A stretch of 64,000 bases of DNA from Elusimicrobiota bacterium (lineage in GTDB: Bacteria > Elusimicrobiota > Elusimicrobia > UBA1565 > UBA9628), in the NCBI GenBank assembly GCA_003452935.1, contig DMMY01000016.1, forward strand, positions 142,009-206,008, in the 5' to 3' direction. Below, piece after piece: positions 2,962 to 64,000 of this stretch (within the stretch, counting starts at the first letter, position 1; each line of letters begins with the position of its first letter). Position numbers and translations under genes: made by a program. Under the pieces are notes generated by a model, which was not told where the DNA came from, ran no database searches, and saw only the letters and a list, made by a program, of their open reading frames with translations.

Positions 2962-3311
2962 CACGGCCGGCCCTCCTTCTCGATGTCGCCCAGGAGCTTG
3001 TCCACGCGGGAGGCACGGCGCGGAGTATCGTCGAAACGGAACACGATCTTGGGGATGAGCTTCAAGCTCAAGCGCTTGATGAGGAGATGGTGAATGAACG
3101 GCGCGCACCGGTCCAGGGCCCGGGACGTGCGTTTGCTCTCCTGCGTCGTGCCCAGGACCGAGTAATAGACGGTCAGGTTCTTGCGGTCCACGCTGAGCTC
3201 GAGGTCGGTCAGGGTGAGAAGCCCGGATATCCCGGGATCCTTCACCTCGCGCAGGGCCTTGGTGATCTCTACCCGGAAAAGCTCGCGCAAACGCTCGTTG
3301 CGGTCGAACAT
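2961..3311 (-). CDS. rbfA: Ribosome-binding factor A
   Basis: MFDRNERLRELFRVEITKALREVKDPGISGLLTLTDLELS. The ggagg RBS lies before the ATG at 3311. The ORF-track start at 3446 is an upstream extension. Confidence 0.85.
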   Translation of the reverse strand: MFDRNERLRELFRVEITKALREVKDPGISGLLTLTDLELSVDRKNLTVYYSVLGTTQESKRTSRALDRCAPFIHHLLIKRLSLKLIPKIVFRFDDTPRRASRVDKLLGDIEKEGRP

Positions 3312-56514: not shown

Positions 56515-58431
56515 ATGCCAAAAATATTTTTTTCATATAAACGCCTCCTTATCATAGGCGCGGATGCGATGGCTTTTACGGTTTCTTACGCCCTAGCCTT
56601 TTTCCTGCGCTTTGATCTCCATATCCCTCTGAACCAACTAGCCAACTTTCTCGTCACCGTCTGGCTCGTGGTCGGCATCCGGCTGCTGACCTTCCTCTAC
56701 CTCGGCGCCTACGAAGGCGTCTGGCGCTACGCCAGCATCGCGGACCTCTCCACCCTCCTAAAAGCCATGGCCGCGAGCCAGGTCGTCATCACCGCCGCGG
56801 TCCTGTTCCTCCAGCACGCCAATTTTCCGCGCTCCACGCTCCTCATCGACGCCGCCTTGGCCCTCATCTTCGTCGGCCTCACCCGCTTCGGAATCCGCAT
56901 GACCCGCCAATGGCGCCAGCAAGGCCACCCACAGGACCTTCCCCGGCTGATCATCTTCGGCGCCGGGGATTTGGGGGAGACCATCGTGCGCGACATGCAA
57001 AGGCGCAAGCGCCCCACGCACAAAATCGTGGGCTTCGCCGACGACGATCACGCCAAATGGCGCATGCGCATCCACAACGTGCCCATCTTGGGAGGCCGCA
57101 AGGAACTGCCCAAGCTCATCGAGAAGCACGGCGTCGACGAGGTCGTAGTCGCGGTCAACCACTCGCGCGGACCCCTGATCCAGGACTTGATCGAGCTCTG
57201 CCGCAAGGAGCCGGGCCGCAAGGTCGAATTCAAGACCGTGCCCACCATCGAGGAGACCCTGCGCAGCGACCATACCCATCAAAAAGGCTTTCGCAGAATC
57301 GAGCTCTCGGACCTCTTGCGCCGCAAGCCCGTCGCCACCGACCTGGGAGCGGTCAAGAACCTCATCGCGGGCAAGACGGTCCTGGTCACGGGCGCGGGCG
57401 GGAGCATCGGCTCCGAGCTCTCGCGCCAGATATTGCGCTTCAAGCCATCCAAGCTGATCCTCCTGGAGAAGCACAACACGGCCCTTTTCTACATCGACCG
57501 GGAGCTCTGCGCGGTCAAGAACGGGACCTGCCTCGTGCCCGCGGCGGGAGACATCACGGACCCCGACCTCCTGGACAATCTCTTCGACGCGCACAAGCCC
57601 CAGCTCGTGTTCCACGCGGCCGCGCACAAGCACGTCTCGCTCATGGAGGCCAATCCCCAGGAGGCGGTCAAGAACAACACCATAGGCACCCATCTCCTGG
57701 CCGAGAAAGCGGCGCGCTACCACGCGGAACGCTTCCTGTTCATCTCCACGGACAAGGCGGTGCGGCCCACCAGCGTCATGGGCGTCTCCAAGCGCATGGC
57801 CGAGATGGTGATCCGGGCCCTGGCCCCGGCCGCAGAGACCAAGTTCCTGTCCGTGCGCTTCGGCAATGTCCTGGGCAGTTCCGGCAGCGCCGTCAACATC
57901 TTCAAGGAGCAGATCGCCCATGGCGGGCCGGTGACCGTGACGCATCCGGAGGTCACGCGCTACTTCATGACCACCCAGGAGGCGGTCGAGCTGATCCTTC
58001 AGGCCTGCTCCATGGGCAGCGGGGGGGAGATTTTCGTCTTGAACATGGGAGAGCCCGTAAAGGTGGCGGACGTCGCCCGCAACCTCATCCTCTTGTCGGG
58101 CCTGGAGCCGGACAAGGACATCAATATCGTCTACACGGGCCTGCGGCCGGGCGAGAAAATGTACGAGGAGCTTTTCCGGAGCAACGACGTGCGCCAGGAC
58201 ACGGGCCACCCGGACATATTCGCGGCCCTGCCCGAGGAGGCGGACCTCGCCATCCTGCGCAACCATATCGAGAGCCTGCGCGCGCTTTGCAGCCAGGCCG
58301 ACCCGGCGCCCCTGTTGCGCAAAATCCAGCAGCTCGTGCCCGCCTACACGCCTTCTGCCGTGCACGCGGCCCAACCATGCCCTTGCGACCAGCCATCAGC
58401 TATAGCCCCTGTCTCAGACTTGGCCTCCTAG
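56515..58431 (+). CDS. Membrane-anchored UDP-GlcNAc 4,6-dehydratase (WbpM/PglF/CapD family)
   Basis: N-terminal TM helices; KTVLVTGAGGSIGSEL Rossmann motif; full CapD-type architecture. Only the first ~100 nt are AT-rich; the rest is high GC. Confidence 0.85.
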   Translation: MPKIFFSYKRLLIIGADAMAFTVSYALAFFLRFDLHIPLNQLANFLVTVWLVVGIRLLTFLYLGAYEGVWRYASIADLSTLLKAMAASQVVITAAVLFLQHANFPRSTLLIDAALALIFVGLTRFGIRMTRQWRQQGHPQDLPRLIIFGAGDLGETIVRDMQRRKRPTHKIVGFADDDHAKWRMRIHNVPILGGRKELPKLIEKHGVDEVVVAVNHSRGPLIQDLIELCRKEPGRKVEFKTVPTIEETLRSDHTHQKGFRRIELSDLLRRKPVATDLGAVKNLIAGKTVLVTGAGGSIGSELSRQILRFKPSKLILLEKHNTALFYIDRELCAVKNGTCLVPAAGDITDPDLLDNLFDAHKPQLVFHAAAHKHVSLMEANPQEAVKNNTIGTHLLAEKAARYHAERFLFISTDKAVRPTSVMGVSKRMAEMVIRALAPAAETKFLSVRFGNVLGSSGSAVNIFKEQIAHGGPVTVTHPEVTRYFMTTQEAVELILQACSMGSGGEIFVLNMGEPVKVADVARNLILLSGLEPDKDINIVYTGLRPGEKMYEELFRSNDVRQDTGHPDIFAALPEEADLAILRNHIESLRALCSQADPAPLLRKIQQLVPAYTPSAVHAAQPCPCDQPSAIAPVSDLAS

Positions 58432-59486
58432 CGGCCTGCCTGCTGGGACTAAGCGCCTGCCAAGGGGGGGGGGCCTATTTCCCAATCGGATTATTCAACA
58501 CGGGAAATCCCAAGGACCTCCGGTCCATTAAAAAGGCCGGATTTAACGCGGTCCAGACTTACTCCCGCGACCCGGCGCAGCTCAAGGCCCTGGCCAAGGC
58601 CGCCGATAAAGCCGGCGTCAAGCTCCTGGCCCATCCCCAGGAGCTCTCGGCCTCGACCGTGCCCGTGCGCGGCTGGCCCATGGCGGCTTGGTATCTCGTC
58701 GACGAGCCCGACGTCAACGGCATGAGTCCGAGCGAGCTCTGCTACCTCGCCGGCAAGGTCAAGGCCTGGGCGCCCCGGATACCGGGCGCTTTCGTGGTCG
58801 GCGCCGGGGCCAAGGCCCGGGACTACGCGGCCTGCGGCGACATCCTCATGGTCGACTGGTACCCCGTGCCCCACATGCCCCTTGAATCCGCGGGAGAGAA
58901 CGTGCGCCTCACCGTCGAGGCCGCGGGCGACAAGCCGGTCTGGGCCGTGCTCCAGGCCATGAACTGGAAAGACTACGCCCAGCGCGATCCCAAAAAGCCG
59001 CGCGTCGGCAGATTCCCGACATACGGCGAGATACGCTTCATGACCTATCACTCCATCATCGCCGGGGCCAAGGGCGTATGGTACTTCTCATACGCCAAGC
59101 CCGGCGGCGCGACCCTGGCGCAAAGCCCGGAGGAATGGCTCGCCGTCACCGCCATGGCCAAGGAACTCGCCGCGCTTCGCCCCATCTTCGAGGGGGGAAC
59201 TCCCGCCTATCTTCCCTTCCCGCCCAACCCGGACGGCCCCCTGGCCAAGGCCTGGCGCTATCACGGCCGCGACTACGTCATCATCGCCAACCCCAAGCCC
59301 AAGGCCATGCAGCTCGTGCCCGAGGCGTTGCTCGCGATGCATTGGCGGCCGCTTTTCGAGACCAGGCGCTACCAGAAGGAGCTCTTGAAGAAGGTCGGGG
59401 AAGGCTTTTATCTGCCGCCCTACCGCGTCCTGGTCTTCGAAAGCCGCCTCTCCTGGCGCTCTTCCCGCCCCAAGACCTGGCCTTAA
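58377..59486 (+). CDS. Lipoprotein paralog 2 of the 55336 protein (host-like GC)
   Basis: Lipobox LLGLSAC. Same conserved blocks as paralog 1. Lies inside a long artefactual ORF (56910..59486); the real start is the ATG at 58377. Confidence 0.35.
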   Translation: MPLRPAISYSPCLRLGLLAACLLGLSACQGGGAYFPIGLFNTGNPKDLRSIKKAGFNAVQTYSRDPAQLKALAKAADKAGVKLLAHPQELSASTVPVRGWPMAAWYLVDEPDVNGMSPSELCYLAGKVKAWAPRIPGAFVVGAGAKARDYAACGDILMVDWYPVPHMPLESAGENVRLTVEAAGDKPVWAVLQAMNWKDYAQRDPKKPRVGRFPTYGEIRFMTYHSIIAGAKGVWYFSYAKPGGATLAQSPEEWLAVTAMAKELAALRPIFEGGTPAYLPFPPNPDGPLAKAWRYHGRDYVIIANPKPKAMQLVPEALLAMHWRPLFETRRYQKELLKKVGEGFYLPPYRVLVFESRLSWRSSRPKTWP

Positions 59487-59546
59487 GGCCTTTCGCCGCG
59501 ACAGGAGATGCGGCCGAAGCGGCCGCAACCTTCACGACAACGGCGC

Positions 59547-59619
59547 GGAACCTTTTTGAGGGTTCGATCGTATACCTCCTAGGCTGATCCGGGCCATAGG
59601 GCCCTTGACAATATAGTAT
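59547..59619 (+). promoter_or_regulatory. Repeat cassette R1 (ggaacctttttgagg...GGGCC-ata-GGGCCC-TTGACAATATAGTAT) abutting the ATG at 59620
   Basis: Aligns over ~70 nt with 62354-62435. A GACAAT box ends 7 nt before the ATG, a leaderless geometry. Confidence 0.5.
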
Positions 59620-59955
59620 ATGCAATCTAATATATATGTTAGTAGCGGCCATATTAAAGCCAAGCCGCTCATCAGGTACAAACTGACGGATGAAGAGGGA
59701 AATTTAACGCAAATAGCGGCGTGGAGGGTTCCGGCAGATGCGAAGCATCCGGAAGGGGTGCGATACAGAATGGCTTTTGTCCCAAGGGGGCATTCGCGCC
59801 CCGTCGTCCTCTACGATAACCATCATCCAAAAGGACACCACAAACACATAGGCGCGCAAGAAAGCCCCTATCTGTTTTTCGACGCGCGCCGGTTGGTGCT
59901 GGATTTCAACCGGGACATCCAGCTCTGGAAGCAAGCCAGGGGGTGGCCGCAATGA
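59620..59955 (+). CDS. Small protein with an HHPKGHHKH motif, putative TumE-like (DUF6516-type) toxin component
   Basis: 111 aa; YDNHHPKGHHKHIG histidine-rich motif; its 3' end overlaps the next gene (ATGA). Confidence 0.35.
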   Translation: MQSNIYVSSGHIKAKPLIRYKLTDEEGNLTQIAAWRVPADAKHPEGVRYRMAFVPRGHSRPVVLYDNHHPKGHHKHIGAQESPYLFFDARRLVLDFNRDIQLWKQARGWPQ

Positions 59956-60323
59956 AGGTCGTTACCTTTGAAATCAAGGACGCGGCAACGGCCATGGCTC
60001 AGTTCCAAGAGGCGTTCGAAGCCGCCCACGGCCGAAAACCCTTCAAGCCGAAGTCCGGGGTCTATTTCACGAGCCTCGCAGCGGTGAGGAATTTCCTCAC
60101 TCCGAAACGGCTGGCCCTGCTTCGCCTCATCCGCGCGAAAAAGCCCCACAGCATCTACCACCTAGCCCAATTAACGGGCCGGAGCTTTTCCAGCGTCCTC
60201 AAGGACGTGGACATGCTTGCCAAACATGGCCTCGTGAGATTATCAAGGGACAAGGCCTCGGCGCGGCGCGCCGTGCATCCGTGCGTCGGCTACAGCGCCA
60301 TCCAGGTTTGGATCAACGTTTAA
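59952..60323 (+). CDS. Winged-HTH DNA-binding protein, putative antitoxin partner
   Basis: LTPKRLALLRLIRAKKPHSIYHLAQLTGRSFSSVLKDVDMLAKHGLV HTH; tightly coupled to the upstream small ORF. Confidence 0.45.
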   Translation: MKVVTFEIKDAATAMAQFQEAFEAAHGRKPFKPKSGVYFTSLAAVRNFLTPKRLALLRLIRAKKPHSIYHLAQLTGRSFSSVLKDVDMLAKHGLVRLSRDKASARRAVHPCVGYSAIQVWINV

Positions 60324-60332
60324 ACCGGGCCT

Positions 60333-62252
60333 TCAGGAGGCCGCGGCCGGCTCCGGGGGCGGGGCGAGGCTGCGCCGGAAAGCGTCCATGCCGGGCATGC
60401 GGCCGAGGAAGTCGCGGAGCATTTGCCAGGGGTCCTTGGAGGCTCCAGGCTCAAGGACCTTCCTGCGGTACTCCATGCCGACCTTGGGGTTGAGGATTCC
60501 CTCGGCCAAAAACCTCGAGAGAACATCGACGGAGCGCACGTAAGCCCATGGATAGCCGTAGTAGCCTGCCTCGTAGCCCGATACGATATGATCAAAGTCC
60601 CCTATAACGGCTTTTGGGAAGTACCCGACCCACTCCGCGAAGACGCGGGCTGCGGCCTGGCCGACGTCCAGGGGGGACTCCAGGGTGTGGAAAGCCAGAT
60701 CCATGGCCGCAAGGGCCGAATGATACATCAGGTAATCGGCCGAGGCGGCGGACTGGGCGGCGAGCTGCTCTCGCAGGAGCTCCGGCGGCAGTTTTCGCGA
60801 CGGATCCTGGTCGTGGCCCGAGATGCGGGCGACGATCTCAGGCCGCCAAACCGCGTTTCCCCATAGCATGGACGGGATTTCCCTGAAGTCGACGGGGACC
60901 GACCACGAGTCATACCGGCTGTAGCGCGTCCTGGAGAGCAGTCCGTGCATGAGATGCCCGAATTCATGGAAAATCCTTTCCACTTCCTCGGGGCCGAGCC
61001 ACACGTTCGGATCCACGGAGCTTTTCTTGAATTTGGCGACCACGAGATTGATCGGATTTTGGTAGCCCCCGGCGCCGGAGGCATGGCCCTTGCGCAGGGC
61101 GTCGGCCCAGCCGTCTCCGACTTTCCCCGGACGATCGAAGAGGTCGAGGTAGAAGCTCCCTATCGCGCGGCCCGTGGCCGCGTCCGAGACCTCGAAGAAC
61201 CTCACGTCCGGATGCCAGGCCTGGGCCGGCAGTTCCTTGAAGTCGATCCCCAGGATCTCATGGAATATCTCGAAGGTCCCCTTCAGCACGGTGGCCACGG
61301 GAAAGTAGGGGCGCAGCCTCTGGTAAACGCTTTGGCCGTTTTGGGGAGCCTGGGCCCGCGCGCGGCCGGGCGATTGCAGTTCCGTCTTGAGCTCCGACAG
61401 GAAGGCTGCCGCATTTTCCGGAGTGCGCGCCATGTTCCGCGCGAGCCGGTATTGGGCGAAGTTCTTATAGCCCAGGATGCGGCTTTGTTCCTGGCGCAGC
61501 GCCAGTATCTCGCGCAGGATCGGCGGATTTATTTCCTCGGGCCGGCTCGGGCGCCCGGGCTGAGGCTGCCGCCCGGCCGGCGAATTGCCGGCGCGCGCCA
61601 GCAGCGCGCTTCCTACCGGCGCCTGGCTTTCCTCGAACTTGGAGATGTTGTCGACGAAAGCCTGGCTCAGTTCCGAGAGGCGATCATTGATGGCCTTTAG
61701 GTTGACGCGCTGTTCGATGGGCAGACCCATGCCCCGGGCCCTGTAATCCCGCAAAACGTCTTCCAGGAGCTTCTTGTTCTCCCCGCGCAGACGATCCTCG
61801 GCTTGCGCGGCCCGCAGGACCGCTTGGTAGATATCCTCGCGATAATTCAAGTCATCGAAGTGCCGCGCCGACCGGCGTTCAAGGGCTTTAGCCGCCCGCC
61901 TGACGCGAGGGTCCGGCGAGACGTCCTTCATCATGATCCAGGGAAGCACCGCGTCGTTGTAGCTCTCATGGGCCCGCTCCAGGGCCCGGACCGTGTTCTT
62001 GAAGTTCCGCTCGGCCGCCGGGACGACCAAGACCGCGTCGACGGCGGCGTTGTGACGCCGCTCGACTTCCTTATATCCGTTAATCATCCGCGCGTGGGTG
62101 AAGGAAAAATCCAGACCCGGACCCAAGGCGGACGCGCCCGCGGCGGCGGAAACGTTTCCGGCCGGAGTCCGGCCGCGGAGGGCGATCGCCTGGCCGCGGG
62201 CCGCGGCCGGCAGCAGGAACGCAGCCGAGGCCGCGATGAGTCCGAGGTTCAT
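60333..62252 (-). CDS. Secreted M3-family zinc metallopeptidase (oligopeptidase A / peptidyl-dipeptidase Dcp-like)
   Basis: Signal peptide; HEFGHLMH HExxH motif with downstream Glu; length and layout typical of M3. Confidence 0.85.
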   Translation of the reverse strand: MNLGLIAASAAFLLPAAARGQAIALRGRTPAGNVSAAAGASALGPGLDFSFTHARMINGYKEVERRHNAAVDAVLVVPAAERNFKNTVRALERAHESYNDAVLPWIMMKDVSPDPRVRRAAKALERRSARHFDDLNYREDIYQAVLRAAQAEDRLRGENKKLLEDVLRDYRARGMGLPIEQRVNLKAINDRLSELSQAFVDNISKFEESQAPVGSALLARAGNSPAGRQPQPGRPSRPEEINPPILREILALRQEQSRILGYKNFAQYRLARNMARTPENAAAFLSELKTELQSPGRARAQAPQNGQSVYQRLRPYFPVATVLKGTFEIFHEILGIDFKELPAQAWHPDVRFFEVSDAATGRAIGSFYLDLFDRPGKVGDGWADALRKGHASGAGGYQNPINLVVAKFKKSSVDPNVWLGPEEVERIFHEFGHLMHGLLSRTRYSRYDSWSVPVDFREIPSMLWGNAVWRPEIVARISGHDQDPSRKLPPELLREQLAAQSAASADYLMYHSALAAMDLAFHTLESPLDVGQAAARVFAEWVGYFPKAVIGDFDHIVSGYEAGYYGYPWAYVRSVDVLSRFLAEGILNPKVGMEYRRKVLEPGASKDPWQMLRDFLGRMPGMDAFRRSLAPPPEPAAAS

Positions 62253-62353
62253 GCGCCTATAGTCTAAGCGAATAAGCGGCTTTCGCGTATGGGGCCCAAG
62301 GCCCGCAATTCAGGCGACAAAAGACCCAGCGATTTCCTGGGCCCGGAATGCGG

Positions 62354-62435
62354 GCGAGGACTGGAACTTTTTTGAGGGGTCGCTCGTATATCCTTCAGGG
62401 AACCGGCCCAAAGGGCCCTTGTTAAAACATCAAAT
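62354..62435 (+). promoter_or_regulatory. Repeat cassette R2 (ggaacttttttgagg...GGCCC-aaa-GGGCCC-TTGTTAAAAC...) abutting the ATG at 62436
   Basis: Direct repeat of R1 about 2.8 kb away; GGGCCC palindromes at 62298-62311 and 62323-62330. Confidence 0.5.
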
Positions 62436-62804
62436 ATGATGTATCATGGCCGGGTAGGGCGATACGAACTGATCTTCTATGAAGATGCCCGCGGCATATG
62501 CCAAGTCCGAGATTATCTGCGCGCCCAGAGCAAAAAGGTCCGGGGCCATGCCGGCTGGTTATTGCAGCGGCTCGAGGAAGACGGCCCGAATCTGATCCGG
62601 CCGTCAGCAGCCTGCCTGGGCGACGGGATATATGAGCTTCGGATCATCGCGGAGAGGCGCCAACATCGGATTCTATACTTCTTTGATCGCGAGTTTATCG
62701 TGGCTACGAACGCTTTTCTCAAGAAGTCGGACCGAGTGCCCGACGCGGAAATAGAAAAAGCCAAGAAGACGCGCGCGGCGTGGAGAGGCCACCGAGGAAA
62801 ATGA
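62436..62804 (+). CDS. higB: HigB-like (Gp49/DUF891, RelE/ParE superfamily) toxin
   Basis: LEEDGPNLIRP...GDGIYELRII...HRILYFFDREFIVATNAFLKKSDRVPDAEIEKA, the canonical Gp49-like toxin pattern. Confidence 0.7.
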   Translation: MMYHGRVGRYELIFYEDARGICQVRDYLRAQSKKVRGHAGWLLQRLEEDGPNLIRPSAACLGDGIYELRIIAERRQHRILYFFDREFIVATNAFLKKSDRVPDAEIEKAKKTRAAWRGHRGK

Positions 62805-62805
62805 C

Positions 62806-63126
62806 ATGAGCACGAAAAAGAGACGGCACGTTCGCCTTAAGGATTTTTTACGGGAAGAATTGAAGGATCCGGCAATCCGAAGGTTTTATCACGAAGCCCG
62901 CGCCGAATGGCTCGCCGCCCAAGCGGTCATGAAGGCAAGGGCAGCGGCTCATTTGACGCAGGCTCAGTTGGCCCGCAGGATTCACACCAGCCAGCAGGCC
63001 ATCTCACGCATCGAGGCGGGGGAGCAAAACACCACCGTCGAAATTCTCCAGAAAATCGGCCGCGCCCTGGGCATGGAGCTGCGCATCGCTTACAAACCCA
63101 GAAGCCTGCGTCTTAAACACGCCTGA
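62806..63126 (+). CDS. higA: XRE-family HTH antitoxin (HigA-like)
   Basis: AAAHLTQAQLARRIHTSQQAISRIEAGEQNTTVEILQKIGRALGMEL XRE HTH; toxin-first order as in higBA. Confidence 0.7.
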   Translation: MSTKKRRHVRLKDFLREELKDPAIRRFYHEARAEWLAAQAVMKARAAAHLTQAQLARRIHTSQQAISRIEAGEQNTTVEILQKIGRALGMELRIAYKPRSLRLKHA

Positions 63127-64000
63127 AGGCGTACGGTAGGGCCGCTTGGCTCAGGGAGCGGGCGGCGGAGAAATCCGGCGCCGGGCGGCTGGGAAGCAGC
63201 CATCTCGAGCGCTCGAGGATGAGCGGGCTGCCCTCGCGGCCCAGCCAGAGCCGTCCTCCCCGCTTGGCGAAAGCCGAGATGAGCGGGCCGCCCTCGAGTT
63301 CGGGCAGGCCGTAGACCGCCGACACCGCCAGGGCCGAGTCCTTGTCGTGGCGGATAAGGCGCCTGGAATTGGCGTCAGCGGTCCAGAACTCATCGCCCGA
63401 GACGTCCATGCCGACCACGGAGGCGGGAGCGAGATACGTCTCCTGGACCGAAAGCGAGTCGTCGAGCGCGTGCCGGGAGATGCGCCCCGTCCCGTAATAG
63501 GCCGCGTAAAGGCCGCGGCCGTCGCTGGCCAAGGCGCAAACGCCTTGGTAGGGCAGGGGCCAGGACTTCTCCACGGAAAGCCCCGCGTCCATGCGCCGCC
63601 TCTGGACTTCGTTTTTTCCCGCGTCCGCCAGATACAGGAAGCCTCCGGCCAAGGCCAGCCCCGTGACGCGCAGACCCGCCAGATCGTACCTTCGCTCCTC
63701 GATCAAGCCGCCGTCCCTGAGCCTGAGACGGTAGACGGCCTGGTCGGATGAATCCGCCACCCAGAGAACGTCGCCCTGCCAGGCCATGGCCCGGGGATGG
63801 GAGAAGGTCATGGAGTGGTCCTGGCCGGGGGCGGGAAACGGCCTCCAGACCAGGACCGCGAGCAATGCGGCCAGACCAAGGCCGAGCCAAAGGCCCAGGC
63901 GGCGACCCGCCGGGGCCGGCTCGGGCCGGAGCGGCGCGTCCGCCTCCGGCGATTGGAGGACGACCGGCGCCTGCGACGACCGCTGCTCCTTGGCCGCGGC
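63113..64000 (-). CDS. Membrane-anchored beta-propeller-like protein (5' end beyond the window)
   Basis: The frame stays open to the window end and encodes a TM helix (LGLWLGLGLAALLAVLVW) upstream of the listed Met. Repeated WxADxx/YxADxG blades. Confidence 0.35.
   Translation of the reverse strand, partial: AAAKEQRSSQAPVVLQSPEADAPLRPEPAPAGRRLGLWLGLGLAALLAVLVWRPFPAPGQDHSMTFSHPRAMAWQGDVLWVADSSDQAVYRLRLRDGGLIEERRYDLAGLRVTGLALAGGFLYLADAGKNEVQRRRMDAGLSVEKSWPLPYQGVCALASDGRGLYAAYYGTGRISRHALDDSLSVQETYLAPASVVGMDVSGDEFWTADANSRRLIRHDKDSALAVSAVYGLPELEGGPLISAFAKRGGRLWLGREGSPLILERSRWLLPSRPAPDFSAARSLSQAALPYAFRRV

Follow-up and report, generated by a model that had tools for sequence, protein, structure and literature searches.

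A toxin-first gene pair of the TumE-TumA superfamily with a winged-helix partner in an Elusimicrobiota genome

The window analyzed here, a stretch of 64,000 nucleotides from an Elusimicrobiota bacterium (GenBank assembly GCA_003452935.1, contig DMMY01000016.1, positions 142,009 to 206,008), carries a pair of small overlapping genes, tumE and tumA (Table 1; coordinates without a locus name are those of the window). By family, this pair belongs to the TumE-TumA toxin-antitoxin (TA) superfamily, with the putative toxin gene first and a winged-helix partner, a kind that is already described and already annotated. The new details brought by the comparison with related loci are the core motif of the putative toxin, an operator-like repeat in front of it, a question over its start codon, and a promoter-like motif of the extracytoplasmic function (ECF) sigma type common to a neighboring higBA-like operon.

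Identity of the gene pair

Both open reading frames (ORFs) had many homologues, with E-values reaching 3e-39 for tumE and 6e-53 for tumA, and are therefore genes rather than chance ORFs. A first-pass annotation, made from the sequence alone, had described a 111-residue protein with an HHPKGHHKH motif, coupled through an ATGA to a 124-residue winged helix-turn-helix (wHTH) protein. The upstream frame, its motif (residues 68-76) and the ATGA coupling were all recovered, while the second protein proved to be 123 residues long, the stop codon having been counted in the first estimate. A GTG at 59943 would yield a tumA product of 126 residues, but the start was set at the downstream ATG because homologues begin there, with MKV.

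The profile hidden Markov model (HMM) search that had been proposed as a check placed the tumE product in Pfam family PF20126 (TumE, formerly DUF6516), with 38.8 bits for a curated cut-off of 23.4 (E = 9.7e-10); the match spanned residues 26-100 of the protein and positions 5-80 of the 81 in the profile. The suggested resemblance to the TumE/DUF6516 class was thereby confirmed. Among the 91 homologues of TumE, PF20126 was present in all but one truncated sequence. The tumA product matched PF25212 (HVO_A0114) over residues 36-117, with 68.7 bits for a curated cut-off of 27.6, and a wHTH domain was present in its AlphaFold2 (AF2) model, both in agreement with the winged-helix partner and the HVO_A0114 profile named beforehand. 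No model matching TumE was found in PADLOC (2023) or NCBIfam, and both window proteins matched PHROG families, of unknown function only. The identical pair was present on several groundwater-metagenome contigs of the same organism, and its closest named relatives were found in metagenome-assembled genomes of Elusimicrobia.

Table 1. Features of the tumE-tumA region, in window coordinates
Feature	Position	Strand	Remarks
tumE, putative toxin	59620-59955	+	ATG start, 111 aa; PF20126 match, homologues
tumA, putative antitoxin/autorepressor	59952-60323	+	123 aa; N-terminal strand and helix, then wHTH
ATGA stop/start overlap of tumE and tumA (translational coupling)	59952-59955	+	
Sigma-70-like promoter TTGACA-17 nt-TAATAT	59605-59633	+	10/12 consensus positions
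Inverted repeat ATATAGTA-N9-TAATATAT, candidate TumA operator	59611-59635	.	Overlaps promoter spacer and -10 box
R1 repeat, copy 1	59547-59610	+	Copy 2 at 62363-62424, upstream of the higBA-like pair
ECF-sigma-type promoter-like motif GGAAC-N17-CGTAT(A)	59547-59573	+	5' half of R1
G+C hairpin GGGCC-ATAG-GGCCC	59591-59604	+	Inside R1, read from sequence

Conservation and mobility of the module

Scanning one genome per species yielded 80 loci encoding TumE relatives, which were scattered over at least eight phyla (Elusimicrobia, Binatia, Methylomirabilota/NC10, Rokubacteria, Acidobacteriota, Nitrospirota, Bdellovibrionota, Myxococcota and others). A tumA homologue, detected by tblastn and by a profile HMM for the weaker cases, directly followed tumE on its strand in each of the 79 scorable loci; the 80th locus stops at a contig edge. 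The commonest arrangement was a 4-nucleotide (nt) overlap of the two genes (41 of 66 loci), and overlaps of 1-20 nt accounted for most of the remainder. Flanking genes were unrelated, as 247 of the 264 clusters of flanking ORFs were singletons and the largest one was common to 6 loci. Pairwise identities of TumE and of TumA were correlated (r = 0.83), a value reached by none of 999 Mantel permutations. Constant pairing, unrelated flanks and co-divergence together mark the two genes as an autonomous unit that changes genomic context and is inherited as a whole.

Pfam-confirmed copies of the pair were also found on mobile elements. On Acetobacter plasmids they are bracketed by transposase genes, and in an Escherichia coli Stx1c prophage the pair is inserted into the nin region in the opposite orientation. 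Unrelated flanks together with plasmid and prophage copies describe a mobile unit of patchy distribution and varied contexts. The E. coli proteins are named "toxin-antitoxin system TumE family protein" and "HVO_A0114 family putative DNA-binding protein" in RefSeq; with the architecture kept in every scorable locus, this naming supports the TA-like pair put forward by the first-pass annotation.

In phiSTEC1589-Stx1c, the pair (locus L088, 2459-3107; PQ600364.1, 15113-15761) is located between antirepressor and replication-region genes. Pairs of this type occurred in 18 of 5,426 complete E. coli genomes and would offer a convenient native system for the subfamily.

Core motif and predicted fold of TumE

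In a 25-sequence alignment of the close subfamily, residues D66, N67, H68, H69, P70, K71, G72, H74 and H76 of TumE were invariant. When 1.84 billion cluster representatives (50% identity) were searched with a profile, 1,308 proteins were recovered at E <= 0.001, and among the 122 best-scoring full-length representatives Y49, D66, N67, K71, G72, H74, H76, L92 and F96 stayed conserved, the commonest variant of the motif being YDNERGKGDHRH. All family-conserved residues were intact in the window protein. In the wider TumE family H68, H69 and H73 were replaced while D, N, K, G and H-x-H were kept, so that the "His-rich" character stressed by the first-pass annotation is partly subfamily-specific: the histidines are present in the window protein, but they are only partly a family feature, the conserved core being D-N...K-G-x-H-x-H.

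The AF2 model of TumE, with a predicted local distance difference test (pLDDT) score of 90, displayed an alpha+beta fold in which an antiparallel sheet is packed by a helix. The conserved core (YDN-x3-KG-x-H-x-H) is carried by a beta-hairpin whose strands span residues 63-68 and 72-77. Judging by strand register in this model, D66, H74 and H76 would share one face, an arrangement suiting a catalytic or metal site, and residues D66, N67, K71, G72, H74 and H76 are candidates for an active or metal-binding site. TumE showed no relation in sequence or in fold to RelE/HigB or MqsR toxins, and a profile search of PDB sequences returned a best E-value of 0.15, for an influenza haemagglutinin, which is noise.

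Predicted fold of TumA

The AF2 model of TumA (pLDDT 82) comprised an N-terminal strand and helix (residues 3-26), a lower-confidence linker, the wHTH domain (42-111) and a C-terminal strand. Helices were placed at residues 42-48, 51-63, 68-75 and 79-91, and the strands of the wing at 96-99 and 108-111. The top Foldseek matches were generic repressors of the MarR/ArsR type (MexR, MarR, ArsR), and SmtB, CzrA, ZitR and AdcR were also matched; for residues 42-111, E-values were about 1e-4 and TM-scores, normalised by target length, about 0.45-0.6. Sequence profiles remained below their cut-offs for MarR (PF01047, 23.5 bits for 24.6), which indicates a related fold rather than membership, and for ArsR/SmtB (NF033788, 22.4 bits for 55). 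A profile search of PDB sequences with TumA was negative.

Promoter region and operator-like repeat

The region contained three promoter-like sites, for 0.2 expected. The TTGACA and TAATAT boxes of the sigma-70-like promoter lined up with the same boxes in the related loci L006, L008 and L086. In most of the 80 loci, an inverted repeat of 20-25 bp was located just 5' of the tumE start codon or abutted it, following the pattern TAyATGG-N7-9-CCATrTA with half-sites that differed by lineage (for example TATATGGTA...TACCATATA, TACATGGCG...GCCATGTA and ATATTGGTA...ACCAATAT). Its mean score was 6.6, against 4.6 in shuffled sequences, and scores of 8 or more were reached in 22% of the loci and in 0.75% of the shuffles. 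From its sequence, such a repeat, conserved across phyla, would look like the operator of a dimeric autorepressor.

The two copies of the R1 repeat in the window were identical at 52 of 65 aligned positions (80%), and the second one stands upstream of a Gp49/HTH_3 (higBA-like) pair, which upholds the parallel between the two cassettes drawn in the first-pass annotation. A third, partial copy was found at 17295-17320 of L001, about 2.9 kb past the window end and directly 5' of an HTH_3 gene. The conserved core of R1 is GGAAC-N16/17-CGTAT(A), and its second copy in the window is at 62363-62389. These were the only two matches to the motif in the 64-kb window, both 5' of TA-like operons, for 0.12 expected by chance. 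The same motif occurred 55-85 nt 5' of tumE in other Elusimicrobia (L007, L040, L057, L064 and L086), with differing spacer sequences, and near-variants of it were present in L049 and L061.

An AAC...CGT pattern is typical of the promoters of ECF sigma factors, and the R1 core is possibly a second promoter, of stress type. A more ambitious scheme, covering this genome and related Elusimicrobia, would have tumEA, the higBA-like pair and the HTH_3 operon past the window end share this ECF-sigma-type promoter upstream of autoregulated promoters of their own, one stress sigma factor switching on the whole toxin set, and only these transcripts carrying a usable toxin ATG in the subclade of the window TumE; we regard this scheme as unlikely.

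The G+C hairpin of R1 has a counterpart in the second copy (GGCCC-AAA-GGGCC). Folding of the leaders 3' of the R1 motif was no better than that of shuffled sequences (z = -0.6 and -0.8), and Rfam returned nothing credible for positions 59400-63200. A structured RNA was therefore abandoned as an explanation of R1.

Start codon of tumE

Most TumE homologues are 97-100 residues long and start with M-K/R-A, which corresponds to residues 12-14 of the window protein. At this usual position the window has ATT (59653) instead of ATG, and a start there would give 100 residues. The ATG at 59620 falls in the spacer of the sigma-70-like promoter and, at the same time, in the loop of the operator-like repeat. 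Since the usual family start is at residue 12 and the upstream ATG lies inside the promoter and the repeat, the N-terminal 11 residues are uncertain. The window and L007 look alike in the N-terminal extension (NIY), which was considered as a sign of translation and ruled out, as the likeness reflects DNA-level conservation of the -10/operator sequence TAATATATAT.

The same layout was found in the relative P0002/L086 (59% protein identity), which has ATT at the same site (L086 188-190), an in-frame ATG-CAA in the promoter spacer and an open frame between them. This shared arrangement suggests, at the level of the sequence, a maintained alternative start and not decay. GTG or TTG starts were present in about a quarter of the related tumE loci. 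Weak initiation of the toxin thus seems normal for the family, and may be a selected feature of it. Because P0002/L086 shares the start layout and the family uses GTG and TTG starts, the window toxin is probably still made, either weakly from the ATT or from ATG 59620 on transcripts starting further upstream.

Degenerate loci were observed among the relatives. L037 is without a usable in-frame start codon (around 2990-3010), and L077 (3042-3380) displays a frame disruption and an apparent overlap of 145 nt with the partner gene. These two loci suggest that the toxin gene sometimes decays and leaves the partner gene in place.

Comparison with described systems

In the study that defined TumE-TumA (Durairaj et al., Nature 2023; PMC10584680), six TumE proteins from gammaproteobacteria halted the growth of E. 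coli and were counteracted by their cognate TumA. The TumE of Allochromatium tepidum, the only one for which this was shown, lowered the incorporation of 35S-methionine; a ribonuclease activity was proposed without demonstration (PMC10584680). The tested pairs were drawn from subcluster 1a; in clusters 1, 2, 4 and 6 DUF6516 mostly follows its partner, and one partner in cluster 1 is a remote RelB homologue (PMC10584680). Literature searches returned no later study of the TumE mechanism and nothing on HVO_A0114.

The window pair resembles these published modules in being bicistronic, with a small putative DNA-binding partner and a TumE that is predicted to fold as an antiparallel sheet with a helix and has no relative in the PDB. 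It differs in gene order, as the toxin comes first and is followed by a 123-residue HVO_A0114 winged-helix protein, whereas the tested pairs have the opposite order. The window TumE is also minimal, with about 98 residues, six strands and one helix against seven strands and two helices, and bears extra histidines (HHPKGHH) around the conserved core. The pair of E. coli STEC1589 (phiSTEC1589-Stx1c) is closer in gene order, Pfam families and sizes (95 and 119 residues), its TumE and TumA being 39% and 31% identical to the window proteins. Unlike the window pair, which is chromosomal, from a groundwater genome and placed behind an ECF-like motif, it is prophage-borne, found in Enterobacteria and displays the motif variant YDNERGKGDHKH.

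Type II modules of "reverse order", HigBA and MqsRA, share with the window pair an upstream toxin gene, a helix-turn-helix antitoxin and tight spacing or overlap, and their palindromic operator has a candidate counterpart at the window promoter. TumE shows no relation to RelE, HigB and MqsR toxins, and the resemblance is of architecture only. Winged-helix repressors of the MarR and ArsR families are approached by the predicted fold of TumA residues 42-111; TumA differs from them by HMM scores under the cut-offs, by extra N- and C-terminal strands and a helix, and by being without metal-sensor motifs.

Proposed mode of action and alternative explanations

The module probably works as a toxin-first type II TA system of the TumE-TumA superfamily, in which TumE arrests growth and TumA both neutralises it and represses the operon. 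By homology to the tested members, TumE would be a growth-arresting effector that blocks protein synthesis; it is most likely a nuclease or hydrolase, an activity that is unproven even in those members. The ATGA overlap would couple translation of tumA to that of tumE. TumA is expected to neutralise TumE through direct binding and, as a dimer, to repress the operon at the inverted repeat lying over the sigma-70-like promoter. For the window pair itself we thus infer toxicity, target, neutralisation and autoregulation, whereas family membership, the conserved pairing and coupling of the two genes, their co-divergence, their spread on mobile elements and the inverted repeat at the promoter come directly from the comparisons above.

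The same components could respond to another trigger, and the pair could serve mainly in phage defence by abortive infection, or in competition among mobile elements, instead of plasmid-style addiction or stress response. Homologous pairs in the nin region of the Stx1c prophage and beside plasmid transposases point in this direction, as do the PHROG families of both proteins and the presence of another TA-like pair (Gp49/HTH_3) about 2.5 kb away. However, TumE matched no PADLOC (2023) model, literature searches found no reported defence phenotype, and the immediate neighbors in the window are housekeeping genes, which leaves a defence role somewhat unlikely. The start codon raises a different question, namely whether the pair has decayed: with the normal toxin ATG lost at 59653, the toxin would be barely or not translated and tumA kept mainly as a transcription factor. 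The position at which most homologues start is indeed ATT in the window, the sole in-frame ATG is enclosed by the -35 and -10 boxes and by the arms of the repeat, neither of these codons is preceded by a Shine-Dalgarno sequence, and a usable start is missing from at least one related locus (L037). Silencing nevertheless appears quite improbable, as the tumE frame is intact with every family-invariant residue kept, P0002/L086 shares both the ATT and the in-frame ATG-CAA, the frame being open between them, weak GTG and TTG starts are common in the family, and the upstream ECF-like promoter could make transcripts that include ATG 59620.

A metal-responsive regulatory pair, made of an ArsR/MarR-like repressor and a small His-rich metal-binding protein, would do without any toxin. 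It is suggested by the weak match of TumA to ArsR/SmtB (NF033788), by the ArsR, SmtB, CzrA, ZitR and AdcR structures among the Foldseek matches, and by the six histidines within nine residues of TumE. The ArsR score was however far under its cut-off, and the structural matches reflect the generic winged-helix fold only. Replacement of H68, H69 and H73 (as in YDNERGKGDHRH) with D, N, K, G and H-x-H kept is more in keeping with a catalytic site than with a metal store, metal transporter or resistance genes were never conserved neighbors in the 80 loci, and TumE family members are toxic in E. coli (PMC10584680). Such a metal-responsive pair is accordingly very improbable, and the TumE-TumA type II TA module is the reading retained.

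Neighborhood in the window

The immediate neighbors of tumEA are housekeeping genes for polysaccharide synthesis and an M3 peptidase. The higBA-type neighbor (62436-63126), about 2.5 kb from tumEA, consists of a Gp49/HigB-like gene (PF05973, 65.5 bits) and, 1 nt further on, an HTH_3 gene (XRE, 54.4 bits). It lies behind R1 copy 2, and its ATG is only about 11 nt past a -35-like TTGTTA. Upstream of tumEA, an 858-residue frame of the program-made ORF list (56910-59486) was spurious, crossing a CapD-like polysaccharide synthesis gene (56515-58431) and the next gene; the gene calls of the identical contig in this area are a 620-residue protein and a 369-residue protein of unknown family.

The G+C content was 56% for the pair, 63-67% for its immediate flanks and 57% for the whole window. 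Recent horizontal transfer was considered on the basis of composition and rejected, the pair being close to the whole window.

Significance

Calling the window pair TumE-TumA adds little by itself, since TumE-TumA has been published and the annotation pipelines now in use already give the pair this name. Through the comparison, a widespread TumE subfamily is defined in which the toxin comes first and the partner is of the HVO_A0114 type, within a wider family of about 1,300 cluster representatives, and the candidate active site is narrowed to D-N...K-G-x-H-x-H. The conserved operator-like repeat and the homologue in an E. coli prophage would ease experimental work. The unusual layout of the start codon and the ECF-like promoter motif are the only features that might repay follow-up, the latter as a possible stress regulon of TA-like modules.
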